From positions 1 to 48,014 of the forward strand of contig DATACM010000356.1 in the NCBI GenBank assembly GCA_036259055.1: a stretch of 48,014 nt of DNA, written 5' to 3'. Source of the DNA: Acidimicrobiales bacterium. GTDB taxonomy: Bacteria > Actinomycetota > Acidimicrobiia > Acidimicrobiales > AC-14. Made by a program: the position numbers and the translations under genes. The notes under the pieces were generated by a model. That model did no database searches and was not told where the DNA came from. It saw nothing but the letters and a program-made list of their open reading frames with translations. This document shows positions 5,363 through 33,795 of this stretch, piece after piece (within the stretch, counting starts at the first letter, position 1; every line of letters starts with the position of its first letter).

Positions 5363-6274
5363 ATGACACTGCTGGACGAGGTGCAGGCGGCGGTGGCGGC
5401 GGTGGCGGAACGAGTGGGACCGGCGGTCGTCGGAGTCGGACAGGGCTGGGGACTGGGGTCGGGGATCGTGGTCGGCGACGGCCTGGTCCTGACCAACGCC
5501 CACAACCTCCGGGGCGGTGAGGTCGCCGTCTCCTTCGGCGACGACCGGACCGAAAGGGGTCACGTGGCCGGGGTGGACGTCGACGGCGACCTGGCCGTCG
5601 TCTCGGTCGACACCACCGGCGTGACGCCGCTCGAGTGGGCCGACGGCGACCTGCCCGGCGTCGGCGGGGTGGTGTTCGCCGCCGCCAACCCCGGCGGGCG
5701 GGGGCTGCGGGTCACGGTCGGGCTGGTCTCGGCCGTCGGCCGGGCGTTCCGCGGACCGCGGGGGCGGCGGGTCACCGGCTCGCTCGAGCACACCGCGCCG
5801 CTGGTGCGGGGCTCGTCGGGCGGGCCCATCGTCGACCGGGAGGGCCGCCTCCTCGGCATCAACACCAACCGGTTGGGCGAGGGCTTCTACGCCGCCATCC
5901 CCGCCGACGCTCAGCTGCGCGCCCGGTTCGAGGCGCTGGCCCGGGGTGAGTCGGCTTCCCGCCGCCACCTCGGCGTCGGCCTGGTGCCCGGCCGGGCCGC
6001 CCGCCACCTCCGCCGGTCGGTGGGCCTGCCCGATCGCGACGGCGTGCTGGTGCGGGAGGTGCAGGAGGACTCTCCCGCCGCCCGAGCCGGCATCCGCCGG
6101 GGCGACCTGATCGTGGAAGCCGCGGGGCGGGCGGTCACGGGGATCGACGATCTGTACACCGCCCTCGACGGGCTCGACGACGGCCAGTCCCTGGCCCTGG
6201 GCATCGTCCGGGGCGCCGAGGAGCTGTCGCTGAGCGTGACCTTCGGCGACACCCGAGAGGAAGGATCGGTCTGA
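5363..6274 (+). CDS. trypsin-like (HtrA/S1C-type) serine protease with PDZ domain, no signal peptide
   Basis: Catalytic triad context 'TNAHNL', 'DGDLAVV' and 'GSSGGPIV'. The C-terminal PDZ-like segment is 'LGVGLVP...GIRRGDLIVEAAG'. RBS GAAGGAG lies upstream. Confidence 0.85.
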   Translation: MTLLDEVQAAVAAVAERVGPAVVGVGQGWGLGSGIVVGDGLVLTNAHNLRGGEVAVSFGDDRTERGHVAGVDVDGDLAVVSVDTTGVTPLEWADGDLPGVGGVVFAAANPGGRGLRVTVGLVSAVGRAFRGPRGRRVTGSLEHTAPLVRGSSGGPIVDREGRLLGINTNRLGEGFYAAIPADAQLRARFEALARGESASRRHLGVGLVPGRAARHLRRSVGLPDRDGVLVREVQEDSPAARAGIRRGDLIVEAAGRAVTGIDDLYTALDGLDDGQSLALGIVRGAEELSLSVTFGDTREEGSV

Positions 6275-6276
6275 CC

Positions 6277-7281
6277 ATGACCGGCGCCACCGTCGACGGC
6301 CGGCTGCCGCCGCCCCCGGCGCCCGACCAGCCGGAGCAGCCGCTCGACGCCTACTCCCGCGTCGTGACCAGCGTGGCCAAGGCGCTCCTGCCCTCGGTGG
6401 CCAGCCTCCGGGTGATGACACCCGTGCCGGGCGGGCGCCGGCCCCGCGGCGCAGGGTCGGGGGTGGTGGTCACGCCCGACGGGTTCCTGCTCACCTCGGC
6501 CCACGTCGTCGACCGCTCGACCGGGGGGGTGGCCACCTTCGCCGACGGGCGGGAGGTCGACTTCGAGGTGGTGGGCAGCGACCCCCTGTCCGACCTGGCG
6601 GTCATCCGAGCGGCCGGCGCCGATGCCCCGGCGGCGACGCTCGGCGACGCCGACGGGCTCCAGGTCGGGCAGCTGGTGGTCGCCATCGGCAACCCCCTGG
6701 GGTTCGCCGGCTCGGTGAGCGCCGGCGTGGTGAGCGCCCTGGGCCGGTCCTTCGCGGCGGGCGCCGGCCGCAGCGGCCGCCTGGTGGAGAACGTCATCCA
6801 GACCGACGCCGCCCTCCACCCCGGCAACTCGGGCGGTGCCCTGGCCGACGGCACCGGGCGAGTGGTGGGCGTCAACACCGCCGTGGTCGGCCCCGGCATC
6901 GGCCAGGGCCTCGGGCTGGCGGTGCCCGTCAACGCCACCACCCGGGGGATCGTCGCCGCCCTCATGCAGGAGGGCCGCGTGCGGCGGGCCTACCTGGGCA
7001 TCGCCGGCGGCTCCCGCCCGCTGCCTCCCAGGGCGGCGCGGGCCACCGGGCGGGAGCGGGGGATCGAGGTCCTGACGGTCGTCGCCGGCAGCCCGGCCGC
7101 CGCCGCCGGCCTGCGCCCCGAGGACCTCATCCTCGAGGTCGACGGAATCGGCGTCGCCGACGTGGGCGACCTCCAGCGCCTGATGACCAGCGACCGCATC
7201 GGCCGCCCGGTCACCGTCACCGTCTTCCGGCGGGGTCGGGTGGAGAACGTGGAAGCGCGGCCCACCGAGCTGGCCTCCTGA
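6277..7281 (+). CDS. trypsin-like (HtrA/S1C-type) serine protease with PDZ domain, paralogue 2
   Basis: 'TSAHVV', 'SDLAVI' and 'GNSGGALAD', with PDZ 'YLGIAG...GLRPEDLILEVDG'. It starts 2 nt after the stop of the preceding gene. Confidence 0.85.
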   Translation: MTGATVDGRLPPPPAPDQPEQPLDAYSRVVTSVAKALLPSVASLRVMTPVPGGRRPRGAGSGVVVTPDGFLLTSAHVVDRSTGGVATFADGREVDFEVVGSDPLSDLAVIRAAGADAPAATLGDADGLQVGQLVVAIGNPLGFAGSVSAGVVSALGRSFAAGAGRSGRLVENVIQTDAALHPGNSGGALADGTGRVVGVNTAVVGPGIGQGLGLAVPVNATTRGIVAALMQEGRVRRAYLGIAGGSRPLPPRAARATGRERGIEVLTVVAGSPAAAAGLRPEDLILEVDGIGVADVGDLQRLMTSDRIGRPVTVTVFRRGRVENVEARPTELAS

Positions 7282-9083: not shown

Positions 9084-9785
9084 GTGAACGGCGTCTACCG
9101 CTGGCTGCGCTCGTCGGTGGGAAAGGTCGGCCGGCTGACGCTCCCCGGGGTGCGCCAGGTGCACGCCCAGGTGGCGGTGTACGCCAAGGCGTGGGAGGAG
9201 GCCAACGCCCTCGCTCTCTCGGGTCAGGGGCCGCTCTGGGTGGTGCTCGGCGACTCGACCGCTCAGGGGATCGGCGCACCCTCCTACGACCAGGGCTACG
9301 TCGGGCAGCTGCGGAGGATGCTCGACGAGCACTCGTCCCGTCCCTGGCGGGTGCTCAACTTCTCCCGCTCGGGGGCCCGTGCCGCCGACGTCGTGAACGT
9401 TCAGCTGCCGCGGCTCGAGGAGCTGGACACGACACCCGACCTGGTGACCTGCGCCATCGGCGCCAACGACATGGTGCCCACGCCGCTGCCCCAGGTCCTC
9501 GACTCGATAAGGGAGATCATCCGCCGGCTCCCCCGCGGCTCGATCATCGCCACGATCCCTCAGGGCCTCCGGTCCAGCCGGGCGACGGTCGTCAACGAGA
9601 TGATCCGCGACGAGGCACCCGCCGCCGGGCTGGTGGTGGCCGACGTGTGGGCGCACACCGGGCCACCGTGGCACGGGAAGCTGGCCGAGGACGGCTTCCA
9701 CCCCGGGTTGGCCGGCTACGCCGAGTGGGCCAAGGCGTTCGCCGAGGCCCTCACCCAGGTGCCGCCCCGGCGGGACAGCGGCTGA
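9084..9785 (+). CDS. SGNH/GDSL hydrolase family protein
   Basis: Block I 'VVLGDSTAQG', block III 'CAIGANDMV', block V 'EDGFHPGLAGY'. GTG start. Confidence 0.8.
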   Translation: MNGVYRWLRSSVGKVGRLTLPGVRQVHAQVAVYAKAWEEANALALSGQGPLWVVLGDSTAQGIGAPSYDQGYVGQLRRMLDEHSSRPWRVLNFSRSGARAADVVNVQLPRLEELDTTPDLVTCAIGANDMVPTPLPQVLDSIREIIRRLPRGSIIATIPQGLRSSRATVVNEMIRDEAPAAGLVVADVWAHTGPPWHGKLAEDGFHPGLAGYAEWAKAFAEALTQVPPRRDSG

Positions 9786-9797
9786 CGCCCGTCCCGG

Positions 9798-10343
9798 TCA
9801 GACGCGGGCGACGTTGCCCTGGATGTCGACCACCCGGACGGTGGCGGAGTGGAAGCCGTCCTTGTCGTTGACGCTGCACTCGATGGTGGTGCCCACCTCG
9901 GCCAGCCGGACCTTGCCCGGCCCGCACTCGACCCGGGCGCTCTGGTCGCCCCACGTGCGCTTCACCACGTCGAGCACCTTGGCCAGGGAGACGACCGCCT
10001 TGGTGAGCTCGAACTCGTACTCGGCCGTCTTGGCGTCGCGGTCGACGTCGGTGATGGTGACGGTGTAGGGCGCCGGGAGCCCCTCCACCAGGACGCTGCA
10101 CCCGAACGTCGCGCCCTTGCGCAGCTCGGCGCGGGTCGCGCACCTGGCCTCCCCCACGTTCAGGTCGGGCGTGGCCTGCTTCTGGCGGGCGACCAGCTGC
10201 TGCTCGGCCTGGGTCGTGTCGAGCGCCCCCTCGGTCGTGCGCGTCTCGTCCGAGCTCTCGGTGCCGTCGACCGTGTCGTTGCCACACGCCGCCGCAAGGG
10301 TCACCAACAGCCCGAGGACGACCGCGGCCGCACGTCTGGTCAC
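9798..10343 (-). CDS. DUF4333-like lipoprotein
   Basis: GTG 10343 is preceded by GAAAGGGGGGG. The lipobox is 'LLVTLAAC'. Two repeats of a Cys-containing module ('ARCATRAELRKGATFGCSV', 'RVECGPGKVRLAEVGTTIECSV') are typical of DUF4333. Track ORF 9798..11837 runs on upstream as a shadow frame of the aldehyde dehydrogenase gene. Confidence 0.7.
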   Translation of the reverse strand: MTRRAAAVVLGLLVTLAAACGNDTVDGTESSDETRTTEGALDTTQAEQQLVARQKQATPDLNVGEARCATRAELRKGATFGCSVLVEGLPAPYTVTITDVDRDAKTAEYEFELTKAVVSLAKVLDVVKRTWGDQSARVECGPGKVRLAEVGTTIECSVNDKDGFHSATVRVVDIQGNVARV

Positions 10344-22078: not shown

Positions 22079-23548
22079 CTACTCCAGCGCCCGCCCGGCG
22101 GCGACGGGGACCCTCACCTCGACCACCGTCCCTCCGTCCGACGACAGGGTGAGGCTCCCGCCCAGCTCGGTCGTGATGAGGGAGCGGACGATCGTGAGCC
22201 CGAGGCTGGGATGATCGCCGTCGAAGGTCGGCGGAAGGCCGGCGCCGTTGTCCCGCACCCGCACGACCAGCTCCGAGCCGTCGTTGGCCAGCGACACGAC
22301 CACGCGCCCGGGCCGGACGCTCGACCACCCCGCCGGGAAGCCGTGCTCTACCGCGTTCTGGAGCAACTCGGTGAGGGCCACCGCCAGCGGGGTGGCCACC
22401 TCGGCCCGAAGCGGCCCCGGGTCGCCCTCGACGGCGAACTCCATCCGGCGGTCCGGCGACACCAGCCCTTCCTCGACCCAGCGCACCAGCGACCGCACGA
22501 TGTCGCCGAAGTCCACCTCGGCGCTGGCCCCGGTCGACAGCCGCTCGTGGACGAGCGCGATGGCCCGGATGCGCTGCACCGACTCCTCGATCGCCTCCTT
22601 GGCCTCGGGCGAGGCCAGCCGCCGCCCCTGCAGGCGCAGGATCGACGCGATGGTCTGGAGGTTGTTCTTGACCCGGTGGTGCATCTCCCGGATGAGGACA
22701 TCCTTCGACACCAGCAGCCGGTCCCGGCGACGCAGCTCGGACACGTCCCGGACGATCACGAGCGCCCCCGTCACCGCCCCGCGCTCGAGCAGGGGGATGC
22801 AGCGCACGAGGAAGGTCACGTCCTTGCGCTCCAGCTCCTCGGTGATCGGCAGTCCGATGGCGAAGGCGGCCCGCACGGACGCCTCGTCGAACCCGATCTC
22901 GCCGAGCCGCGCCCCGATCACGTTGGCGTGGATCCCCATGCGGTGCAGGGCGGAGACGAAGTTCGGGGAGGCGAAGTCCACCCGGGCGGCGGCGTCCAGG
23001 CGGGCCACGCCGTCACCCACCCGGGGGGCGTCCTTGGGCTCGGTGCTCTCCGCCCCGAAGGGGAACTCGCCGGCGGAGATCATGCGGGCGAAGCGGTCGA
23101 AGATGTCGAGGTAGACCCGCTCGAGCTCACCCGGCCGGCGGCCCACCGACGGCGCCGACTCCCGCGTGAGTATCCCGAGGAGGCCCTCCTTGAACCGCAC
23201 GGGGATGCACTGGACGTTGGCCGCCTCGCCCCGAGGGCTGCCGTCGACCTCGCCGTCGATGATCTGGCCCAGCTCCCACGCCCGGGCGACGAGGGGGCAG
23301 TCGTCGGCGCCGACCACCTCCCCCACCCGGTCCTCGCGGTAGAGCGTCTGGCTGGTCGTGGGCCGCATCTGGTCGAGGACGACGAACCGGGGCGGGTCGT
23401 CGGGCTCGCCCACCACGGGCACGTAGAGCAACAGATCGGCGAAGCAGAGGTCGGCGAGGAACCCCCAGGACGCGACCAGCCGCTGGATGTGGCCCAGCGC
23501 CGCCGCGTCGAGGTCGGTCATCCGGGCGATCTCGGTCAGGGAGGCCAT
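22079..23548 (-). CDS. pdtaS: PdtaS-like cytoplasmic sensor histidine kinase (GAF-PAS-HisKA_2-HATPase)
   Basis: The H-box 'EMHHRVKNNLQTIASILRLQ' is typical of the HisKA_2/HWE-type kinases. There is a C-terminal ATPase ('LTELLQNAVEHGF', 'VRDNGAGLP', 'LGLTIV') and no TM segment. Confidence 0.85.
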   Translation of the reverse strand: MASLTEIARMTDLDAAALGHIQRLVASWGFLADLCFADLLLYVPVVGEPDDPPRFVVLDQMRPTTSQTLYREDRVGEVVGADDCPLVARAWELGQIIDGEVDGSPRGEAANVQCIPVRFKEGLLGILTRESAPSVGRRPGELERVYLDIFDRFARMISAGEFPFGAESTEPKDAPRVGDGVARLDAAARVDFASPNFVSALHRMGIHANVIGARLGEIGFDEASVRAAFAIGLPITEELERKDVTFLVRCIPLLERGAVTGALVIVRDVSELRRRDRLLVSKDVLIREMHHRVKNNLQTIASILRLQGRRLASPEAKEAIEESVQRIRAIALVHERLSTGASAEVDFGDIVRSLVRWVEEGLVSPDRRMEFAVEGDPGPLRAEVATPLAVALTELLQNAVEHGFPAGWSSVRPGRVVVSLANDGSELVVRVRDNGAGLPPTFDGDHPSLGLTIVRSLITTELGGSLTLSSDGGTVVEVRVPVAAGRALE

Positions 23549-23560
23549 GTCTCTCTCCCC

Positions 23561-23582
23561 GGGCGGGGCCCCAACCCCGCCC
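23561..23582 (-). terminator. candidate terminator hairpin after the ArsA-like pair
   Basis: GGGCGGGG-ccccaa-CCCCGCCC gives an 8-bp GC stem. It lies between the ArsA-like gene end (23646) and the pdtaS-like start (23548). Confidence 0.4.
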
Positions 23583-23645
23583 TCCTCGCCAGATGGGGCC
23601 CCTGCCCCGTCGGCGCAGTCATGTCATCTCCAGTGTAGGGAAGCG

Positions 23646-24818
23646 TCACCCGCTCCAGACGGCCCTCCCCACCTGGACGAGCCCGGAGACGTCGTAGATG
23701 TCGGTGTCGAAGGACGGGATGCTCACCACCACCTCGGCGGACGCGGCCAGCTCGGCCCGCAGCTCGGCCTCCCGCTTGGCCACCACCTGGAAGTTGAGGA
23801 AGCTCTCCGCCACCTCCCGCAGCACCCGGCTGACCGCCTGGGGCGGGCCCGCCTCGGGAAGGGCGTCGGCCAGCGCCGGGGCCTCGGCCGCCAGGCGCTC
23901 GGCGACCTCGGCGGCGGAGGGGTCCAGCAGGTAGGGCGGGAGCACCTTGTTGAGCACCAGCGCCCCGGCGTGGAAGCCCTGGGCGGCGAGGGCGGAGAGG
24001 AAGAACTCGGCCTCCCGCACGGGCGCCGCCTCCAGCGTCGTGACGACGAGGAACGTCGTGCGCCGATCGTGGAGGAGGTGCTTCACGGCGCGGGCCCGCT
24101 CGGCGAACCCCGGGTACATGGTCTGGAAGAGCAGGAAGAACTCGGCGATGTCCTCGAGGAACTGCGAGCCCAGGATCCGGTCGGCGACCTGGTAGAAGGG
24201 CCGGGTGGCCAGGTTCAGCATGCGTGATCGGGCCGGGCCGGTCAGCCAGCGCAGGAGCCGGCTGGAGAAGAAGTCGGCCATCCGGTCGGGAGCGGCCAGG
24301 AAGTCGATGGCGTGGCGGGTGGGTGGGGTGTCGACGACGATCAGGTCATAGCGGCCGGAGCGGTGGAGGTCGTAGAGCCGCTCCATGGCGATGTACTCGT
24401 GGCTCTGCACGAAGCGGGCCGAGATGTTCTGGTAGAGCGGGTTCTCGAGGATCCGACGGGCGGTGCGGGCGTCGGGCGCATGGCGGCGCACGAGGTCGTC
24501 CCATTCCTGCTTCGTGTCGAGCATGGCCGCCCACAGGTCGCCTCTCGGCTCGACCCCCGCCTTCTTCAAGGCCTCCGACGAGACGCGGGTCTCGACGTTG
24601 CCCAGCGCCTCCAGGCCGAGGGCGTCAGCCAGGCGGCGCGCCGGGTCGACGGTGAGGACCAACACCGTGCCTCCCAGGGAGAGGCTGGCCATGGTGGCGG
24701 CGGCGGCAGCCACCGTGGTCTTGCCCACCCCCCCGGCGCCGCAGCAGATGGCGATCTCCTTGGCGGCGAGGAGCTGCTCGAGGGAGCCGGAGGAACGCCG
24801 GGCGGGAGCGCGTGCCAC
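23646..24818 (-). CDS. ArsA/Get3-like ATPase, paralogue 2
   Basis: GTG 24818 lies 5 nt after the upstream stop. P-loop 'CCGAGGVGKTTVAAA', plus 'LVLTVDPARRL' and 'YDLIVVDTPPTRH'. Confidence 0.8.
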   Translation of the reverse strand: MARAPARRSSGSLEQLLAAKEIAICCGAGGVGKTTVAAAAATMASLSLGGTVLVLTVDPARRLADALGLEALGNVETRVSSEALKKAGVEPRGDLWAAMLDTKQEWDDLVRRHAPDARTARRILENPLYQNISARFVQSHEYIAMERLYDLHRSGRYDLIVVDTPPTRHAIDFLAAPDRMADFFSSRLLRWLTGPARSRMLNLATRPFYQVADRILGSQFLEDIAEFFLLFQTMYPGFAERARAVKHLLHDRRTTFLVVTTLEAAPVREAEFFLSALAAQGFHAGALVLNKVLPPYLLDPSAAEVAERLAAEAPALADALPEAGPPQAVSRVLREVAESFLNFQVVAKREAELRAELAASAEVVVSIPSFDTDIYDVSGLVQVGRAVWSG

Positions 24819-24823
24819 CGGCG

Positions 24824-25771
24824 TCAGTAGCCGAGCTCGGCGGAGAGGGCGTCCGCCGTCTGTGCGGTGGTGCGCAGCCCGTGGCCGCGGGCGAAGAGGT
24901 AGGGGACGAACAGGAGGGGGATGTCGCCCACCGCGTCCATGAGACGTTCGAGGTGCCCGGCACGGGTGCGGCGGAGCGTGACGGCCAGGCGGGCCGCCTC
25001 GAAGACGTCGTCGACGGGACCGCCGGCCTTCTCCGAGACCACGCCGGCCAGCGCCGGCTGGCGCAGGCGCTCGAACAGCTCCTCGTCGCTGTGGCTGAAC
25101 AGCTCGGGGAGGACCCGGTTGACCACGATGGCGGCGACGTCGACCTCGGTCTCCCGTCGCAAGCGCCCGATCAGGTCGATGGTCTCGTTGACCGGCATCT
25201 CCTCGGGCGTGGTGACGATGACGACCCCAGTGACCGCCGGGTCGCCGAGGATCTCGAGCATCCAACCCGTCTGCTGGTGCACCGGCCCCACCCGGACGAG
25301 GTCGTCGATGGCCTGGGGGGCCGCCAGCTGACCGACGACGTGGCCGCTGGCGGCGGCGTCGGTGACGACGAGGTCGTAGTGGCGCTCGCGGACCTCGTAG
25401 GCCAGCTTGCCCACGGTGAGGATCTCGCGCACGCCCGGCGCGGCGGTGGCCACGAAGTCGAAGGCGCGCGCCAGCGGCCCGACGCGGGCCACGGCGGGGA
25501 GCCGGAGCTGGATGCGCAGGTACTCCTGCAGCGACTCCTCGGTGTTCATCGACATGGCGAAGAGCCGCGGCTGCACCTCCCGGGGCCGGAACCCGACGGG
25601 CGCCGACTCGAAGAACTCGGCAAGGTCGCCCTTGGCGTCGACATCGCACGCCAGCACCCTCGCTCCCCGCTGAGCGGCGAGGAGCGAGAGGGCGGCGGCG
25701 ATCGACGTCTTTCCCGTCCCTCCCTTTCCGGTGACGAACAGCAGTCGCCGGCTGAGCAGGTCGACGGCCAT
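24824..25771 (-). CDS. ArsA/Get3-like ATPase, paralogue 1
   Basis: P-loop 'VTGKGGTGKTSIAAA', plus 'YDLVVTDAAASGH'. The pairing with a second ArsA-like gene matches the M. tuberculosis Rv3679/Rv3680 arrangement (from memory). Confidence 0.85.
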   Translation of the reverse strand: MAVDLLSRRLLFVTGKGGTGKTSIAAALSLLAAQRGARVLACDVDAKGDLAEFFESAPVGFRPREVQPRLFAMSMNTEESLQEYLRIQLRLPAVARVGPLARAFDFVATAAPGVREILTVGKLAYEVRERHYDLVVTDAAASGHVVGQLAAPQAIDDLVRVGPVHQQTGWMLEILGDPAVTGVVIVTTPEEMPVNETIDLIGRLRRETEVDVAAIVVNRVLPELFSHSDEELFERLRQPALAGVVSEKAGGPVDDVFEAARLAVTLRRTRAGHLERLMDAVGDIPLLFVPYLFARGHGLRTTAQTADALSAELGY

Positions 25772-26177: not shown

Positions 26178-27266
26178 GTGCTCGTCGCCGACGGGATCGT
26201 CGTCGCCCTCCGCCTCGGAGAGGACGAGCGGCGGGTCCCCCCCGCCCTCGAGCAAGTCGTGCTCGAGCTCGAGGCCTTCGTCGAACGGGAGCGGGGCCAG
26301 CGCTTCGTGCGCCCGGTCGACGTGCGCCTGGTGTCGGACGAGCGGTTCGAGGCGGCGGTGCGCCGGCTGCGGCGGGACCAGAGCGGCGACGAGGGTGACG
26401 AGCGGGTGTTCGTCGGCCTGTTCCGGGCGCTGGGCCTGGTGGAGGGGGATTTCGACCCGACGGCGATCGAGGAGGGCTCCGACGACCGCATCCTCGGCTT
26501 CTACGACCCCGAGGGCGACGTCCTTCTGGTCCGCGGCTCCCGGCCCACACCCGCGGTACGGCGCGTGCTCGTCCACGAGCTCACCCACGCCCTCGACGAC
26601 CAGCTCTTCGGGCTCGAGCGCCCGGAGCTGGACGAGCGCGACGACGAGGCGTCCATCGCCTTCCAGGCGCTGGTCGAAGGCGACGCCGTGCGGGTCGAGT
26701 CCCGGTACTTCGCCTCGCTCTCCCCCGAGGACCGGCGCCAGGCCGAGATCGACGGCAACCCCCCAGGGACCGCCGAACCAGCGGCGCCCCGGGTGTTCGA
26801 GGCGCTGCTGGCCTTCCCGTACGAGGCGGGCGAGGCCCTGGTGGACGCCCTCCTGCGGGCGGGCGGGGCGCCGCGCCTGGACGCCGCCCTGGTCGACCCC
26901 CCGGTGTCCACCGAGGCGGTGTTGCATCCCGAGCGCTACCTCGCCGGGGAGCAGCCGAAGGCCGTGGCCGACCCCGAGCCGGCGGGCGACCCGGTGGACG
27001 GCGGCGTGCTGGGCGAGCTGATCCTGCGCCTCCTCCTCCAGACGAGCACGGATCGGGCGACGGCGGCAAGGGCCGCCGAGGGCTGGGGCGGCGACCGCTA
27101 CGTCGCCTGGTTCGACGGCGACCGGCTCTGCGTGAAGGCCGCCGTCGTGATGGACACGCCGGCCGACCGGGCCGAGCTGGTGACCGGGCTGCGTCGCTGG
27201 GCCGAGGGCCATCCCGGCGCCGCCGTCCTCGACGGCGACCCCCTCACCCTCCTCCGCTGCGAGTAA
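26178..27266 (+). CDS. HExxH metalloprotease-like protein (N-terminus unresolved)
   Basis: 'VLVHELTHALDDQ' is a zincin motif, and 'FQALVEGDAVRVE' is a possible third-ligand region. The in-frame sequence upstream of GTG 26178 has no stop and encodes a hydrophobic segment. Confidence 0.65.
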   Translation: MLVADGIVVALRLGEDERRVPPALEQVVLELEAFVERERGQRFVRPVDVRLVSDERFEAAVRRLRRDQSGDEGDERVFVGLFRALGLVEGDFDPTAIEEGSDDRILGFYDPEGDVLLVRGSRPTPAVRRVLVHELTHALDDQLFGLERPELDERDDEASIAFQALVEGDAVRVESRYFASLSPEDRRQAEIDGNPPGTAEPAAPRVFEALLAFPYEAGEALVDALLRAGGAPRLDAALVDPPVSTEAVLHPERYLAGEQPKAVADPEPAGDPVDGGVLGELILRLLLQTSTDRATAARAAEGWGGDRYVAWFDGDRLCVKAAVVMDTPADRAELVTGLRRWAEGHPGAAVLDGDPLTLLRCE

Positions 27267-27391
27267 GGGCGGGCTCGAGCCGCCCGTGTATCAAGCGGCG
27301 GGCGAGACGCTCTCTCTTGGCGAGCGGGCCAGCGAGACCGCGGGACGACCAGTGCAGGACTGGCCGGGAGGTGCACACCCAAGGAGTTCCC

Positions 27392-27565
27392 ATGCCAGAG
27401 ATGTTCACCTGTGCGGAGCCGGGCTGTAACCAGCCGGTCTCCTACGAGCGCCAGGACACGTTGTTCTTCAGTGGCCGCCGGCAACGGCCCAACATCTTCA
27501 GTCGGGTGAAGACCGTCTACCTCATGTGCCCGAACGGTCACCAGCGGCCGTACAAGGTGCGCTAG
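27392..27565 (+). CDS. zinc-ribbon-like microprotein (57 aa)
   Basis: ATG 27392 lies 5 nt after AAGGAG. 'CAEPGC ... CPNGH' is a C-x4-C / C-x3-H pair. Codons with A/T at the third position (cca, tgt, ttg, agt, caa, ggt) are unusual for this window. Confidence 0.55.
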   Translation: MPEMFTCAEPGCNQPVSYERQDTLFFSGRRQRPNIFSRVKTVYLMCPNGHQRPYKVR

Positions 27566-28285
27566 ATGGCCGCTCCCACGCTCGAAGAGGTGATGATCAA
27601 CGACCTCTACTGGTTCGCGCGCGCCAGGGCTCTGGTGGACAACGCCATCCTCAGCCGCGAGGAGGCGGCCGCCAAGCTCCTCTCGGCCGTTGGCTGGTTC
27701 TGGACGGTGTACTCGACCGTCGCCATCGTCGGCACCGCGATCGCCGACACCTCGTTCTCCTGGTGGGTCGCCGTGGCCCTGGCGCTGCCCGCCGTTTCGC
27801 TCCTGTTCGCCTACCTGCTCGGCCTGCGCGTCCTGATGCCGCACGACGGTTGCTTCGACCGTCAGTCCCCCACCGAGATCGAGGAGGCGTGCAACGCGAT
27901 CCTCGGGCTGAAGAAGCGTCGGCTGAAGGTCGCAGTAGGGGCGACGATCGTCGCGGCCGCGACGGTCGTGGGCGCGGTCCTGGCCGCCGCCGTGACGTCG
28001 CCGGCGACCGATCAGACCCTCTCGGCGCGGTTCCGGCCGGCCGGTGACGAAGGACGCCTCGTGGTGGCGGCCCGCGTCCAGGCCGAGACCGACGTCGTCG
28101 TCTCGGTGCGCCCGGAGGGGACCACGCCAGAGGCGCGGCCCGTGGAGGTCATCGAGCGCAGCTCCAAGCGCGGCGATGTCCGCAGCGACGTCGCCGTACC
28201 GCTTGCCGGGTCGTACGAGGTCGAGCTCGAGTGGGTCGACGACGACCTGACCAGATCCGTGTCCAAGAACGTTCCCGGAGCATGA
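27566..28285 (+). CDS. three-TM membrane protein, unknown function
   Basis: Its ATG directly abuts the upstream TAG (TAGATG). It has an N-terminal helix 'LYWFARARALVDNAILSREEAAAKLL' followed by a TM hairpin, then a third TM and a beta-rich C-terminal domain of about 100 aa. Confidence 0.6.
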   Translation: MAAPTLEEVMINDLYWFARARALVDNAILSREEAAAKLLSAVGWFWTVYSTVAIVGTAIADTSFSWWVAVALALPAVSLLFAYLLGLRVLMPHDGCFDRQSPTEIEEACNAILGLKKRRLKVAVGATIVAAATVVGAVLAAAVTSPATDQTLSARFRPAGDEGRLVVAARVQAETDVVVSVRPEGTTPEARPVEVIERSSKRGDVRSDVAVPLAGSYEVELEWVDDDLTRSVSKNVPGA

Positions 28286-28313
28286 GCTCCCCGTCGCCAA
28301 CCTGGGAGGACCG

Positions 28314-29396
28314 ATGCCTGCCGCCGACGAAGTGATCCCACTCGAGTCCCCGACGCTCGCCAGCCCGCTGGAGCGAGCCGCACATGCCTTCGCCGCCGCC
28401 AGGGGACGCCCCGCCGTCTTCTACTTCCTGGCCCATCACGAGCCGATAGGGACGAAGAACGTGCGAGAGCTCGGCGAGCGGATGCCGGACGAGAAGCTCC
28501 CCGAGCTCGATCTGGTCATCCATTCGTCCGGCGGCGACATCCATGCCGCCTATCAGCTGATCTCTTTCCTGCGGCGCCGCACCGACAAGCTCATGGCGTG
28601 CGTTCCGCGCTACGCCAGGAGTGCGGCGACGTTGCTGTGCATCGGCGCCGACCTGATCATCATCGACGAGCTGGCGGGGCTCGGCCCCCTCGACGCCCAG
28701 ATCTACGACGGGACGAACGACGCCGGGCAGGCGAACTACAAGTCCGCTCTCAACCAGCTCAAGGGGCTCGAGCGCCTGCGGGACTTCTCCCAAGAGACCC
28801 TGTTCGAGACGGCTGCTTCACTGTGGGACAAGGGGGTCAACGCCACGACCGAGGACACCCTGAGGAACGCGAGGGAGTTCGTGAGGGTCGTCACCGCCCC
28901 GCTCTTCGACAAGATCGAGTCCCACCGGCTCGGGGACTACAGCCAGGCGCTGGCGATCGGCGAGGAGTACGGCAAGCGCCTCCTCCGCCGGCTGCCGGGC
29001 GTCCCTCAGCCGGACCAGGAGCGAATCGTGCGCAAGCTCGTCCACGAGTACCCCTCACACGAGTACGTGATCGACTACCAGGAGCTGGTCGACCTCCATC
29101 TCCCGGTGAGGTTGTTCGAGGGCGAGGAGAAGGCGGCCGCCCGCGTCCTGGCCAACCACGTCGACGAGAGGCTCGTGGCGTTCTTCGACCCGCTCGGGAC
29201 CCGCTTCGACGGGCACAAGGCTCAGCAGGAGGAAGGGCCCGCCGAAGAGGCCGGTGCCGAAGGCACCCGGCCGGCGCCGCCGGGCCGCGGGAACGAGCTC
29301 GACGTCGCCGCCCGGTCGGGCGGGCGGGCCCAGTCCGCGGCCACCACGTTCTCCCAAGGCCAGAGCGGCGTCCCGACGGAGAACCCCTGGCGCTGA
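28314..29396 (+). CDS. SDH-family (serine dehydrogenase proteinase) ClpP/crotonase-fold serine protease
   Basis: RBS GGGAGGA. 'LDLVIHSSGGDIHAAYQLISFLRR' and 'VPRYARSAATLLCIGADLIIIDELAGLGPLDAQI' match the family core as I recall it (oxyanion GG, Ser nucleophile). The C-terminal tail is low-complexity. Confidence 0.75.
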   Translation: MPAADEVIPLESPTLASPLERAAHAFAAARGRPAVFYFLAHHEPIGTKNVRELGERMPDEKLPELDLVIHSSGGDIHAAYQLISFLRRRTDKLMACVPRYARSAATLLCIGADLIIIDELAGLGPLDAQIYDGTNDAGQANYKSALNQLKGLERLRDFSQETLFETAASLWDKGVNATTEDTLRNAREFVRVVTAPLFDKIESHRLGDYSQALAIGEEYGKRLLRRLPGVPQPDQERIVRKLVHEYPSHEYVIDYQELVDLHLPVRLFEGEEKAAARVLANHVDERLVAFFDPLGTRFDGHKAQQEEGPAEEAGAEGTRPAPPGRGNELDVAARSGGRAQSAATTFSQGQSGVPTENPWR

Positions 29397-29403
29397 GAGA
29401 CGA

Positions 29404-30090
29404 TCACGTCTCCGGGCCGGGCTGGTCGCCCGCCGCCGGACGTCCGGTCATCTCCTCGTACCATCGGGGGCGCCGCACGCGGGCCCACGACGCCGGCACC
29501 CGGCCGCTCACCATGCCCCGGAAGGCGTCGGAGTCGGAGAGCGCCATCCAGACGTGACCGAGCACGACGAGGGTGAGGGCCAGCGCCGTCCAGTCGTGCA
29601 CGAAGGTGGCGCCCGTCCGCCAGCTGACCGGGAACGGGGAGAACCAGTGCATGATCGAGCCGGTCCCCAGCATCACCACGCCGGCTCCGGCGACGAAGGC
29701 GGCGTTGAGCTTCTGGCCGGCGTTGAACTTGCCCACTCGCACCGCTGGGTCGCGGCCCCGAGACCGCAGCCAGCGCCGGTCGTGCCCGTCCCAGCGGTTG
29801 AACGCCCGGATGTCGGCGACGAGGCCGCGGCGCCAGCGCCCGGCCAGGCCGAGCACCACCGGGACGGGGAGAAGCAGGCCGGCCACGACGTGCACGCGCC
29901 GCACCACCTGGCGGCGCCCGACCACGACCGACAGCTCGCCGATGTAGAGCACGGCGGCGGTCACCATGAGCACGAGGACCAGGGCGGCGGTGCACCAGTG
30001 CACCGCCCGCTCGCAGCGGTCGAACCGCAGCAGCCACCGGGGCGGCGACGACCGGCTGTCCGACGCGACCTCAGACGGGAGGGTCGTCAC
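29404..30090 (-). CDS. cytochrome b (Ni-hydrogenase/FdnI-type) membrane subunit
   Basis: GTG 30090. It has four TM helices with conserved His ('RAVHWCTAALV', 'VRRVHVVAG', 'TFVHDWTALALTLVVLGHVW'). It overlaps the upstream Moco oxidoreductase gene by 20 nt. Confidence 0.7.
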   Translation of the reverse strand: MTTLPSEVASDSRSSPPRWLLRFDRCERAVHWCTAALVLVLMVTAAVLYIGELSVVVGRRQVVRRVHVVAGLLLPVPVVLGLAGRWRRGLVADIRAFNRWDGHDRRWLRSRGRDPAVRVGKFNAGQKLNAAFVAGAGVVMLGTGSIMHWFSPFPVSWRTGATFVHDWTALALTLVVLGHVWMALSDSDAFRGMVSGRVPASWARVRRPRWYEEMTGRPAAGDQPGPET

Positions 30091-30784
30091 GGCCGTTCGA
30101 CCTCCCGATCCAGGCGTCGACGTCGTACCCCCGCTCCTCCCAGAACCCCGGCGCCGGGGGGCCCTCGGTGACCTCCACCCTCTCCAGCCACTTGCACGAC
30201 TTGTAGCCGTACATGGGCGCCACGTAGAGCCGCACCGGCCCGCCGTGGGCGGTGGTGATGGGGCGGCCCAGCATCTCCCACGCCACGATCACGTCCTCGC
30301 GCCGGGCCTGGTCGAGGGTGAGGCTCTCGGTGTAGCGGCCGTCGAAGGAGTAGAAGCGCACGCCGCCGGCGCCCACCCTGACCCCCGCCCGGTCGAGGAG
30401 CTCGGCGAGGCGCACGCCCTTCCACTTGACGTCGCGGACCCGCCACCCGGTGACGCACTGGAAGTCGCGCGTCAGGCGGGTGACGGGCAGCGACTTGAGG
30501 TCGGCGGCGGTGAGCTCGAGCTGGCGGTCGACGTGGCCGCCCACCCACAGCCGGTACTCGGCCTCGCTGCGCTGGGGAAGGCTGCCGGTGACGGTGTAGA
30601 TGCGGAAACGCCCACTGGGCGCCAGCGACTCCAAACCGAGCCGCCCGGCGACTCCCTGGACGACCCGCTCGAGCCGGTCCTGGATCCTGGCCCCGAAGAG
30701 GACGCCGACGCCGCCCAGTCCGACCATGCCCAGGAAGACGCGCCGCCCGATGGGCGCCTCGCGTGTCGCGTCCGGCCCTGCCAC
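30071..30784 (-). CDS. molybdopterin-dependent oxidoreductase (sulfite oxidase/MsrP-like), Tat signal
   Basis: Twin-arginine 'GRRVFLGMVGLGG'. 'DFQCVTGWRVRDVKWKGVRL', 'GGPVRLYVP'-like 'HGGPVRLYVAPMYGYKSCKWL'. Confidence 0.8.
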   Translation of the reverse strand: MAGPDATREAPIGRRVFLGMVGLGGVGVLFGARIQDRLERVVQGVAGRLGLESLAPSGRFRIYTVTGSLPQRSEAEYRLWVGGHVDRQLELTAADLKSLPVTRLTRDFQCVTGWRVRDVKWKGVRLAELLDRAGVRVGAGGVRFYSFDGRYTESLTLDQARREDVIVAWEMLGRPITTAHGGPVRLYVAPMYGYKSCKWLERVEVTEGPPAPGFWEERGYDVDAWIGRSNGRDDPPV

Positions 30785-32180: not shown

Positions 32181-32639
32181 GTGCGGATCTCGGCCAAGGT
32201 CGACTACGCCGTCCGGGCCCTCACCGAGCTGGCGGCCGCCGGCGACGGACCGGTCAAGGGCCAGGACATCGCCGCCCGCCAGGGGGTCTCGGTGAACTTC
32301 CTCGAGAACATCCTGAGCGACCTTCGCCGGGCCGGGCTGGTGGGCAGCCAGCGGGGCTCGGTCGGCGGGTACTGGCTCGCCGTCCCGGCCGACACCATCA
32401 CCATCGCCGACGTCATCCGCACGGTCGAGGGTCCCCTCGCCGACGTGCGGGGCGAGGCCCTCGAGGACCTCGACTACGCGGGGCCGGCGGAGGCCCTGCG
32501 TGACGTGTGGGTCGCGACGCGCGCCAGCCTGCGGGCGGTGCTCGAGGCCGTCACCATCGCCGACGTCGCCAACCACGAGCTGCCCTCGGTGGTGCGGCGC
32601 CTCACCCGCTCAGCCGACGCCTGGGTCAGGAGGTCGTGA
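32181..32639 (+). CDS. Rrf2 family transcriptional regulator (cysteine-free)
   Basis: 'MRISAKVDYAVRALTELA...GQDIAARQGVSVNFLENILSDLRRAGLVGSQRGSVGGYWL'. There is no Cys anywhere in the 152 aa. Confidence 0.85.
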   Translation: MRISAKVDYAVRALTELAAAGDGPVKGQDIAARQGVSVNFLENILSDLRRAGLVGSQRGSVGGYWLAVPADTITIADVIRTVEGPLADVRGEALEDLDYAGPAEALRDVWVATRASLRAVLEAVTIADVANHELPSVVRRLTRSADAWVRRS

Positions 32640-32661: not shown

Positions 32662-33795
32662 TCAGGAGATCCGCAGCTCCGGGCGGGAGATCCGGCCGGG
32701 GCCCATCTCGACCACCCGGCGGGCGAGGGCGTCGAAGGCCTGGGACGCCTCGCTCGTGGGGTCGGCGACGGTGACCGGCTCGCCCACGTCGCCTCCCTCC
32801 CGCAGGGCCGTCACCAACGGGATCTGGGCGAGCAGGGGGACGCCGAGGCTGTCGGCGAGCAGCTGGCCCCCGCCCGAGCCGAAGATCGGGTAGCGCTTGC
32901 CGTCGTCACCCGTGAACCAGCTCATGTTCTCGACCACGCCACGCACCGCCAAGTTGACCTTGCGGGCCATGAGGGCGGAGCGCTGGGCCACCCGCTGGGC
33001 CGCCGGCTGCGGCGTCGTGACCACCAACATCTCCGACCGGGGCAGGAACTGGGCCATCGACAGGGCGACGTCGCCGGTGCCGGGGGGCATGTCGACGAGG
33101 AGGAACGCCGGGTCGCCCCAGAGGACGTCGGTGAGGAACTGCTCGAGGGCCTTGTGCAGCATGGGCCCCCGCCAGATGACGGGCTGGTCGTCGCCCACGA
33201 AGAACCCGGTGGAGATCACCTTCACGCCGTGGGCCACCGGGGGGACGATCATCCCGTCGATCACGACCGGCTCGTGGCCGATGCCGAGCATCTTGGGGAC
33301 CGAGAACCCGTAGACGTCGGCGTCGAGGACGGCCACCTCGCGGCCCAGCCGGGCCAGGGCGACGGCCAGGTTGACGGTGACCGACGACTTGCCCACGCCG
33401 CCCTTCCCCGACGACAGGCCGAGCACCCGCGTGCGCGAGGCGGGGTCGGAGAAGGGGTTCGGCGGCGCCGTCCCCGGCCCGTGCTGGTGGCCGGCGGCGG
33501 GACCACCGGGACCCCCGTGGAGGCGCTGGCGGAGGGCGGCCCGCTCCTCGTCCGACATCACGGTGAGGTCGACCTCGACCTCGCGCACGCCTTCCAGAGG
33601 CTGGACCGCCCGGGTGACCCGATCGGTGATCTCGGTCCGCAGCGGGCACCCGGCAACGGTGAGGGCGACGGTGACGCCGACCCGGCCGTCGTCGACCCGG
33701 ACCTGGCGCACCATGTCGAGATCGACGATGCTGCGCTGCAGCTCCGGGTCCTGTACCGGCCGGAGGGCATCGAGCACCTGGGCTTCGGTGGGCAT
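32662..33795 (-). CDS. mrp: Mrp/ApbC-type Fe-S cluster carrier ATPase with N-terminal DUF59/MIP18 domain
   Basis: 'DPELQRSIVDLDMVR', deviant P-loop 'SGKGGVGKSSVTVNLA', 'DADVYGFS', 'VDMPPGTGD'. Confidence 0.9.
   Translation of the reverse strand: MPTEAQVLDALRPVQDPELQRSIVDLDMVRQVRVDDGRVGVTVALTVAGCPLRTEITDRVTRAVQPLEGVREVEVDLTVMSDEERAALRQRLHGGPGGPAAGHQHGPGTAPPNPFSDPASRTRVLGLSSGKGGVGKSSVTVNLAVALARLGREVAVLDADVYGFSVPKMLGIGHEPVVIDGMIVPPVAHGVKVISTGFFVGDDQPVIWRGPMLHKALEQFLTDVLWGDPAFLLVDMPPGTGDVALSMAQFLPRSEMLVVTTPQPAAQRVAQRSALMARKVNLAVRGVVENMSWFTGDDGKRYPIFGSGGGQLLADSLGVPLLAQIPLVTALREGGDVGEPVTVADPTSEASQAFDALARRVVEMGPGRISRPELRIS

Follow-up and report, generated by a model that had tools for sequence, protein, structure and literature searches.

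What might a compact three-gene cassette contribute to the cell when it sits among housekeeping genes of an actinobacterial genome? We examined this question for a locus of an Acidimicrobiales bacterium (contig DATACM010000356.1, assembly GCA_036259055.1), within a stretch of 48,014 nucleotides that we refer to as the window. The locus encodes a small zinc-ribbon-like protein (g1), a membrane protein (g2) and a serine protease (g3), and the original prediction had proposed it as a candidate conflict or defence module without a named counterpart. The cassette and its upstream flank comprise the following features.

26178..27266, + strand: HExxH (VHELTH) putative metallopeptidase, upstream flank, weak DUF6782 match
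27381..27386, + strand: g1 ribosome-binding site AAGGAG, 5 nt before the g1 start codon, read from the sequence
27392..27565, + strand: g1, 57-aa cytoplasmic zinc-ribbon-like microprotein, from open reading frame and motif
27566..28285, + strand: g2, 239-aa membrane protein, from open reading frame and AF2 model
28303..28309, + strand: g3 ribosome-binding site GGGAGGA, inside the 28-nt g2-g3 spacer, read from the sequence
28314..29396, + strand: g3, 360-aa cytoplasmic SDH-type (PF01972) serine protease, predicted ClpP/SppA fold, C-terminal helical domain
28620..28622, + strand: Ser103 codon AGT, predicted nucleophile in YARSAATLLC, nearly invariant among 47 homologues
29058..29060, + strand: His249 codon CAC, predicted general base in YPSHEYVID, invariant in the 47-sequence alignment
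29208..29393, + strand: g3 C-terminal tail, disordered linker (residues 299-349), then NPWR (29382-29393)

The open reading frames, gene junctions, ribosome-binding sites and motifs of the original prediction were all recovered on re-reading the sequence, including the TAG of g1 (27563-27565), which immediately adjoins the ATG of g2. Its description of the flanks likewise agrees with profile matches: the convergent gene on the far side encodes a cytochrome b561 (PF01292), and the upstream HExxH protein has a sub-threshold match to DUF6782 (E = 1.4e-4). Near the cassette, no integrase, transposase or other defence gene was found within the window, whose surroundings are housekeeping in character, and a scan of positions 26900-29700 for promoters and terminators found none, such a scan being uninformative in a genome of 72% GC. 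A search with PADLOC models, suggested at the outset, was run on g1, g2 and g3 and returned zero matches. GC3, which had been described as lower in the cassette, is 0.879 in g1, 0.904 in g2 and 0.909 in g3, giving 0.904 for the cassette compared to 0.934 +/- 0.022 for the 22 flanking genes used as reference (z = -1.4). Since the immediate neighbours reach 0.950-0.954 and 3 of the 22 flanking genes are lower still, the dip is local and consistent but lies within the normal range of the window. A foreign-DNA signature based on GC3 or codon usage was set aside, as a z of about -1.4 is not decisive.

The assignment of g3 to the SDH family of ClpP-fold proteases is borne out by its sequence, which contains the blocks IHSSGGD, YARSAATLLC and GLGPLDAQI and matches PF01972 (SDH_protease) above the Pfam threshold over residues 63-132 (48.7 bits against a cutoff of 31.3, E = 7e-13). 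Besides the predicted catalytic residues listed above, D254 and D127 are invariant in the same 47-sequence alignment. In the AF2 model, core residues 18-295 have a pLDDT above 90, and Foldseek placed B. subtilis SppA (4kwb and 3rst; E = 3e-5, probability 1.0) at the top of the matches, together with many ClpP structures (probability 0.99-1.0). Structurally, the g3 core is closest to SppA and ClpP, with a TM-score of about 0.45-0.5 on the target and a sequence identity of 12-14%; g3 differs from SppA in carrying an extra helical domain (residues 145-245), in having no membrane anchor and, most likely, in catalysis, with a predicted Ser/His arrangement (YPSH) in place of the Ser/Lys dyad of SppA. 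No signal peptide is present either. We found 174 homologues of g3, and of the 120 listed a single one lacks PF01972; the NCBIfam profile NF047768 ('SDH family Clp fold serine proteinase') scores g3 at 64.8 bits, below its equivalog cut-off of 250. On this evidence, g3 is an SDH-type protease of the ClpP/SppA fold, with proteolytic activity predicted from sequence.

The C-terminus of g3 carries a candidate regulatory element. While the linker that precedes it has a pLDDT below 50, the last 10 residues of g3 reach 79, and NPW(R) occurs in 63 of the 120 listed homologues, in essentially every long form. At loci with a short form of the protease, a separate downstream ORF of about 77 aa bears the same '...GLY...RNPW' module. 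From the modelled pLDDT value, we infer that the NPWR tail may dock onto the protease body and keep g3 latent, for which SppA provides a precedent, since in 4kwb the C-termini are bound in the protein's own active sites.

The two genes upstream of g3 are without such clear relatives. As proposed, g1 has the C-x4-C...C-x3-H arrangement of a zinc-ribbon-like protein (C7-x4-C12, a variable loop, then C46-x3-H50), and its family follows the motif F.C.E..C...V.Y ... VYLTC...H..Y.V.; sequence searches of Pfam, NCBIfam, PADLOC, PHROG and PDB gave no match for g1. Searches of PDB sequences with all three proteins yielded nothing useful, neither g1 nor g2 matched a housekeeping family among the Pfam and NCBIfam profiles, and in Pfam g2 reached only DUF3658, at chance level. 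The AF2 model of g2 (pLDDT 88.2) agrees with the architecture originally read from its sequence: a cytoplasmic helix (residues 13-38) leads into a hairpin of TM1 (about 39-59, with a WFWTVY belt) and TM2 (about 66-90), followed by a conserved cytoplasmic loop and helix (91-121; P..G.FD.(R/Q)SP ... KKRRLK), TM3 (about 122-143) and an extracytoplasmic seven-strand Ig-like beta-sandwich (152-237). Residues W16, W44, W46, Y49, Y83 and P92 are invariant in the family, and the 150-residue core defines an uncurated family with 437 representative clusters at E<=1e-3 among 1.84 billion. Foldseek searches of g2 against PDB and BFVD returned architecture-level matches only (Kir channels, Ig-like domains; TM-score <=0.3).

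Related proteins inform the likely orientation of g2. A C-terminal OmpA domain, present in 5 of 21 long relatives, speaks for a C-terminus outside the cell, and the fusion of g1 to the N-terminus of g2 in other genomes (see below) for an N-terminus inside, which together with the model supports a predicted N-in topology with an extracytoplasmic C-terminus. In three triad loci (L001, L002, L091), g2 is a form of 149-150 aa that lacks the ectodomain. A pure pore effector would not usually carry an ectodomain, whether Ig-like or OmpA, and this feature suits a sensor role just as well.

The suggestion that the N-terminal part of g2 is SLATT-like did not hold up. Although g2, like SLATT proteins, has a cytoplasmic helix that leads into a TM hairpin and occurs near immune-type genes, it differs in its third TM helix and ectodomain; no SLATT profile (PF18181, PF18183, PF18184, PF18186, PF18160) matched it at E<=1, and a single one of 42 family members reached SLATT_4, at E = 0.019. 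A further Pfam family, PF24838 ('8xMP', octameric membrane protein), gave sub-threshold matches over the N-terminal helix, TM1 and TM2 in 7 of the 42 members (best E = 2.6e-5; best score in an individually scanned member 23.4 bits against a gathering score of 30 bits). The g2 of the window did not match 8xMP at all, and we found no literature on that family.

The three genes proved to be conserved as neighbours. On six independent contigs from unrelated bacteria, the genes for zinc ribbon, 3-TM protein and SDH protease follow one another closely in this order, diverging down to 43% identity in g2 and to 56-62% in g3, but the deeper unit comprises the first two genes. An HMM built from 7 copies of g1 was used to scan upstream of g2 homologues, and among those with enough upstream sequence a g1-like gene immediately precedes g2 in about 19 of 19 distinct loci, which span 25-72% GC. 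Gaps between the two are at most 20 nt wherever the genes were called, and there are three clean fusions, each with g1 N-terminal (P0155, P0198 and P0208). As judged from gene order and fusions, g1-g2 is an obligate pair, and this pair, not the triad, is the apparent conserved unit, with the protease as one of several partners that can replace each other.

These partners include, apart from the SDH protease, HExxH/astacin peptidases, a 1314-aa CHAT + STAND + TPR protein and TIR, and the relatives of the pair include an astacin fusion (P0169). HExxH proteins are conserved beside the pair across L098/L099 and across L103/L104, and are enriched there (8/76 compared to 15/876, Fisher p = 2e-4, with two of the 8 attributable to chance). 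The HExxH protein of the window, of which the other triad loci contain no homologue, is a possible but uncertain fourth component. Defence-type neighbourhoods were observed around some pairs, with SIR2-HerA (HerA E = 3e-178) or a CBASS cyclase (6e-74) accompanied by a WYL regulator and type I RM; recognised defence systems adjoin just 2 of the roughly 19 loci. Transposases flank some pairs, and patatin occurs among the neighbours. Downstream of the L001 triad, a 'HEYEH' protein considered as a metallopeptidase proved to be a patatin-like lipase (GGGVKG...GTSAG).

SDH proteases, for their part, occur elsewhere beside different membrane or STAND-type proteins: a 4-TM protein of 338-340 aa, proteins of about 530 aa with an N-terminal anchor, and proteins that combine a P-loop with TPR. 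Their distribution is patchy, with 314 pattern-confirmed relatives of g3 in 185,579 species genomes from many phyla. Full-length but distant relatives were encountered in phages and in 44 IMG/VR contigs; no viral contig yielded a relative of g2. The rexAB position of E. coli lambdoid prophages, between a cI-like repressor and N, holds such a distant SDH relative in 49 of 5426 genomes, and other prophage relatives also occupy accessory sites, for example next to the integrase. Our search for literature linking SDH/PF01972 proteases to defence found nothing relevant.

The claim that no named system has this composition stands as far as PADLOC is concerned, but SDH-type proteases do figure in one named system, with a different partner. 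A small hypothetical protein and an SDH_sah protease reportedly form an anti-phage system of phage-inducible chromosomal islands, from work by Fillol-Salom et al. in Cell in 2022. The prophage genes annotated under NF047768 are related to this system, known here by its model name, FS_HP_SDH_sah, and the E. coli prophage SDH cassette is its putative counterpart. A DefenseFinder model of that name is mentioned in PMC13532340. The E. coli prophage protein and g3 are homologous along their full length (24% identity over 313 aa, E = 3e-18) and share the motifs GGD, xxSAxTL, GPLDxQ and YPSHxxVID as well as a disordered C-terminal tail, and both cassettes have a small upstream gene and occur at accessory or mobile positions. 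However, the small prophage partner (71 aa) has no zinc ribbon and is dissimilar to g1, the prophage cassettes lack a membrane protein, and their tails lack NPWR.

A further parallel comes from systems in which proteolysis licenses membrane pores, a principle of defence that is well established (PMC12642450). With bacterial gasdermin, Pepco (Trypco) and EACC1, the genes of small or membrane-active proteins are coupled to interchangeable proteases (serine, caspase-like/CHAT-STAND), and these protease-effector modules are shuffled between sensors and are common in Actinobacteria (PMC12642450). The g1-g2 pair is combined with its partners in the same manner. It differs in that neither g1 nor g2 has a sequence or Pfam relationship to those proteins or a PADLOC match, in that g2 is predicted to be constitutively integral to the membrane, with three TM helices and an ectodomain, and is not a soluble pro-toxin, and in its obligate zinc-ribbon partner. 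The ClpP fold of g3 is also a class not among the proteases in that article, where 'ClpP' occurs 0 times.

Taken together, we tentatively favour, at somewhat under an even chance, the reading of the cassette as a conflict or defence-type module of two mobile blocks that couple a protease to a membrane protein. The patchy distribution, partner swapping and immune-type neighbours elsewhere speak for such a module, as originally proposed, while the housekeeping surroundings in the window and a codon usage within the range of the flanks do not. The following is our inference as to which way the signal runs, what the protease cuts and whether toxicity results. The first block would be g1-g2, with the 3-TM protein in the inner membrane, its conserved parts facing the cytoplasm, and g1 bound to, or sitting on, its cytoplasmic N-terminal helix; the second would be g3, a soluble ClpP/SppA-fold serine protease that its C-terminal NPWR tail would keep latent. 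Phage infection, envelope damage or a similar trigger would free the protease to cut g1 or a cytoplasmic segment of g2, and through this cleavage g2 would pass from an inert state to one that damages the membrane and causes abortive infection. Proteolytically licensed pore formers such as bacterial gasdermin, Pepco and EACC1 follow the same logic. A bolder version, which we regard as rather doubtful, is that g1-g2 is an unrecognised, widely dispersed 'constant' membrane module of prokaryotic immunity with at least four mechanistically distinct partner types (ClpP-fold SDH protease, HExxH/astacin metallopeptidases, CHAT-STAND-TPR and TIR), and that the triad would be the first case in which a ClpP-fold protease, inhibited by its own conserved NPWR tail, gates a membrane effector.

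The same parts could instead serve transmembrane signalling or envelope surveillance, in which the g2 ectodomain senses the envelope, g1 is a tethered regulator and proteolysis by g3 frees or destroys g1, as in anti-sigma cascades, so that the output is gene expression or stress physiology and not cell death. The varied extracytoplasmic domains of the relatives, including the peptidoglycan-binding OmpA, would suit this, as would the clustering of conserved g2 residues at the cytoplasmic face, the side on which a partner would bind, the association of the pair with several peptidase classes, and the housekeeping surroundings and unremarkable codon usage in the window. Yet the ectodomain is dispensable, as the 149-150-aa forms attest, no conserved sigma factor or DNA-binding partner lies nearby, the partners include the death-effector or immune-type domains TIR, CHAT-STAND and patatin, and the distribution is patchy and often transposon-flanked; we consider this alternative unlikely.

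Two further explanations start from the protease. That g3 serves housekeeping processing or quality control of membrane proteins, trimming or degrading g2 or other fragments in the manner of NfeD-stomatin pairs or SppA, is improbable: its ClpP/SppA fold, its weak similarity to NfeD1b_N and the repeated occurrence of SDH proteases next to membrane proteins point that way, but the NfeD1b_N score of 20.3 bits falls short of the cutoff of 40, and g2, which the original prediction had thought might prove a stomatin/NfeD-type substrate, has no Band_7/stomatin domain, so that an NfeD-stomatin pair was rejected. The missing anchor and signal peptide of g3 also argue against such a role, as do the rarity and patchiness of the genes (the 314 g3 relatives and 437 g2 clusters given above) and the exchange of partners by both components, which is atypical of housekeeping pairs. 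Least probable by far is a remnant of prophage morphogenesis with g3 as a ClpP-related prohead or scaffold protease. Weak head-maturation matches (NCBIfam, 29 bits; PHROG head protease, E = 2e-3) and the distant relatives in viral contigs are what it draws on, but 29 bits is far under the cut-off of 120, the best PHROGs are of 'unknown function' (E = 3e-27), capsid, portal and terminase genes were not found in the window, and prophage relatives occupy accessory positions (the rexAB slot, beside the integrase), not head modules. With housekeeping flanks, a phage head-maturation protease was rejected as an identity for g3.

The triad is a credible candidate for a new anti-phage or conflict module. 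If this protease-coupled reading is true, g1-g2 would add a new effector or sensor family to protease-coupled bacterial immunity, with 437 clusters and neither a Pfam nor a PADLOC model, and the NPWR tail, whether encoded in cis or by a small gene of its own, offers a concrete, testable regulatory element. ClpP-fold (SDH/S49-like) proteases would then join the proteases of proteolytic licensing, so far trypsin-like, caspase-like and Lon-type, and the cassette would provide an entry point to the SDH-family proteinase genes, so far unexplained, in the rexAB slot of E. coli prophages.

Re-reading of the sequence showed directly the anatomy and gene linkage of the cassette at 27392–29396, with the three ORFs, the abutting junction and the spacer of the original prediction:

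27392–27565, forward strand: g1, zinc-ribbon-like microprotein (57 aa), AAGGAG in front of the start
27566–28285, forward strand: g2, 3-TM membrane protein (239 aa), ATG abutting the g1 TAG
28314–29396, forward strand: g3, SDH-type ClpP-fold protease (360 aa), 28-nt spacer with GGGAGGA upstream

The zinc-ribbon-like residues ascribed to g1 were present as C7-x4-C12 and C46-x3-H50. The flanks were also as described, with an HExxH protein gene (weak DUF6782 match) on one side and a convergent cytochrome b561 gene on the other, in the following setting:

23646–25771 and 22079–23623, reverse strand: a side-by-side pair of genes for ArsA/ParA-type ATPases, plus one for a PdtaS-type GAF histidine kinase, lying upstream of the HExxH gene
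29404–30090, reverse strand: cytochrome b561 gene (PF01292), convergent with g3, stop codons 7 nt apart
30071–30784, reverse strand: molybdopterin-binding oxidoreductase gene (PF00174), overlapping the cytochrome b561 gene by 20 nt
32181–32639: Rrf2 regulator gene, downstream of the cassette
32662–33795: Mrp/ApbC Fe-S ATPase gene, downstream of the cassette

With its ATPase, kinase, Rrf2 and Mrp/ApbC neighbours, the cassette thus sits within ordinary housekeeping DNA, and no mobile-element marks were found around it within the window. The cytochrome b561 and molybdopterin oxidoreductase genes form a YedY/YedZ (MsrPQ)-like pair. The proposed lowering of GC3 held only weakly: a dip is present (g1 0.879, g2 0.904, g3 0.909, versus 0.934±0.022 for 22 flanking genes), but the cassette z is only -1.4 and three of the 22 flanking genes lie lower still. 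Values for a CAI-like index of the cassette genes fell between z = -1.4 and -2.0.

Assignment of g3 to the SDH family was borne out by a PF01972 score of 48.7 bits (threshold 31.3), with its score against the NCBIfam equivalog, 64.8 bits, far below the cut-off of 250. In the AF2 model (pLDDT 86.7), the confident core spans residues 18–295, comprising a ClpP-fold domain and a helical domain, and its nearest Foldseek neighbour was B. subtilis SppA (3rst, 4kwb), followed by ClpP. Across a 47-homologue alignment, S103 (YARSAATLLC) is near-invariant and H249 (YPSH), D254 and D127 are invariant, for which reason the enzyme looks catalytically competent. Beyond the core, a disordered linker (299–349) leads to ten final residues of pLDDT 79 that end in NPWR; in SppA 4kwb, the active sites are occupied by the enzyme's own C-termini. 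The NPW(R) motif occurs in 63 of the 120 homologues listed, including essentially all long forms. Loci with short-form proteases (~291 aa) instead carry a separate, translationally coupled downstream ORF of ~77 aa bearing a '…GLY…RNPW' module, at about 8700–9170 in L009, L010, L011, L015–L018, L022, L024 and L049. Its end, of the '...RIFVDxLYxEF...RSRNPW' type, is the module fused as a tail in long forms such as g3, and in L011 a single stop codon separates the ORF from the protease, whose reading frame it shares. This arrangement suggests that the tail is a functional module that can work in cis or in trans.

For g2, the AF2 model (pLDDT 88.2) matched the predicted cytoplasmic helix, TM hairpin, third TM and beta-rich ectodomain:

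residues 13–59: helix, cytoplasmic amphipathic part running into TM1
residues 66–90: helix, TM2
residues 102–143: helix, K/R-rich cytoplasmic part running into TM3
residues 152–237: seven-strand Ig-like beta-sandwich

An N-in, C-out topology is supported by N-terminal zinc-ribbon fusions and C-terminal OmpA peptidoglycan-binding domains in relatives. The suggested SLATT resemblance found no support in profile scans of g2 and its relatives, and g2 had no meaningful match in Pfam, NCBIfam, PADLOC, PHROG or PDB. An exhaustive profile search with its 150-residue 3-TM core recovered 437 representative clusters of one family at E<=1e-3 (282 at E<=1e-10). Within a broad alignment of 42 g2-family proteins, sub-threshold matches to PF24838 '8xMP', an octameric membrane protein family, occurred in seven (P0162 and others; best E 2.6e-5) and to DUF2721 in five, which may hint at an oligomeric membrane assembly; no literature on 8xMP was found.

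The triad of g1, g2 and SDH protease recurs as neighbours in six independent instances including the window, with g2 identity down to 43%. Gene order is the same in L001, L002/L003, L157 and L091, the last of these truncated on its upstream side; the g2 homologue P0124 and the g3 homologue P0016 share a 2269-nt contig, a linkage known from the proteins. A g1-like gene, with the motif F.C.E..C…V.Y … VYLTC…H..Y.V, lies immediately upstream of the g2 homologue in every family locus with enough upstream sequence (~19 distinct loci, GC 25% to 72%; gaps of 0–20 nt where genes were called), and three proteins (P0155, P0198, P0208) are clean g1–g2 fusions. Thus, the conserved unit is the g1–g2 pair, not the triad, and the SDH protease adjoins the pair only in the window's clade.

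Elsewhere, the pair keeps other company. It occurs with a 1314-aa CHAT, STAND (NACHT/AAA_16) and TPR protein in L092–L096, whose four longer copies are identical over that gene, and with TIR and FHIPEP-like proteins in L102. The latter, upstream of the pair, are two paralogues (7–1350 and 840–2894) resembling the cytoplasmic part of FlhA (the C-terminal domain of FHIPEP); the second, the only one scanned, also has an N-terminal TIR domain, an unusual fusion. HExxH proteins beside the pair are shared by L098 with L099 and by L103 with L104, with others in L097, L087 and the window, and P0169 is an astacin–g2 fusion; HExxH proteins are enriched among pair neighbours (8/76 versus 15/876, Fisher p 2e-4), although chance accounts for two of these eight. 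In L001, a patatin-like phospholipase gene (9297–9908, GGGVKG...GTSAG) directly 3' of the triad runs off the contig end. Beyond the pair lie SIR2-HerA and a PDC-M62A-like ATPase (L105), or a WYL regulator, a CBASS cyclase with E2 and type I RM (L090), and transposases flank L002 and L106. Downstream of the pair in L089, a 292-aa protein without a Pfam match (6319–7197) carries an 'NNCYNYA ... HWY' pattern, perhaps the signature of a papain-like Cys/His peptidase; upstream, the opposite strand encodes a C39-ABC bacteriocin exporter.

The protease likewise has alternative partners: a 338–340-aa 4-TM protein (L004, L006) or N-terminally anchored proteins of ~530 aa (L007, L008). L156 (2237–6218) encodes P0004, a g3 homologue of 56% identity, without the pair; a 168-aa protein, two P-loop NTPase-like proteins and a large TPR protein follow in a STAND-like arrangement. 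Phage and prophage relatives include:

L155 (E. coli NZ_CP019259.1), 5992–6993
L153, 3182–4379
L154, 3315–4385

In lambda, rexAB lies between the repressor and N. At this position, between a cI-like repressor and N, E. coli lambdoid prophages encode an 'SDH family Clp fold serine proteinase' (49/5426 complete E. coli genomes; 24% identity to g3, E 3e-18). A Klebsiella prophage pairs a 71-aa hypothetical protein with an SDH-like protease as a two-gene opposite-strand moron, and in a P2-like Burkholderia phage a relative adjoins the integrase. A DefenseFinder model named FS_HP_SDH_sah exists (PMC13532340). The SDH-protease clade is patchy over phyla (314 relatives in 185,579 species genomes), and distant full-length relatives occur on 44 IMG/VR contigs. 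We take the FS_HP_SDH_sah model to be derived from Fillol-Salom et al. 2022.

The pair and the SDH protease are two independently mobile blocks, each with alternative partners. Partner swapping, immune-type partners, patchy distribution, and prophage and transposon contexts point to a module of the conflict or defence type, and away from a metabolic or housekeeping operon; the comparative context favours this part of the original prediction, while the housekeeping setting in the window and the lack of a PADLOC match for the cassette proteins weigh against it. The main rival holds that g2 is an envelope sensor, which would fit the variable ectodomains of g2 relatives, and that a zinc-ribbon regulator tethered there is subject to regulated proteolysis by the protease; however, the ectodomain is dispensable, being absent from the 149-aa forms in the triad. 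Housekeeping processing of an NfeD/SppA-like kind and a role as prophage head protease are both poorly supported.

The g1–g2 pair lies outside Pfam, NCBIfam and PADLOC and has no solved relative, and we found no literature description of a triad so composed, of the NPWR tail module or of a ClpP-fold protease in such a role. For the conflict or defence-type module, the most likely mechanism would comprise latch, cleavage and membrane damage: g1 would sit on the cytoplasmic N-helix of g2, and the cytoplasmic protease g3 would be held latent through its own NPWR tail. Once activated, by a signal whose direction, like the substrate and the toxicity, we infer, g3 would cut g1 or a cytoplasmic g2 segment and so license membrane damage. 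Such a mechanism would parallel bacterial gasdermin, Pepco and EACC1 (PMC12642450); the SDH protease family, with its named defence association, is already known, and protease-coupled membrane effectors are a known kind of system.
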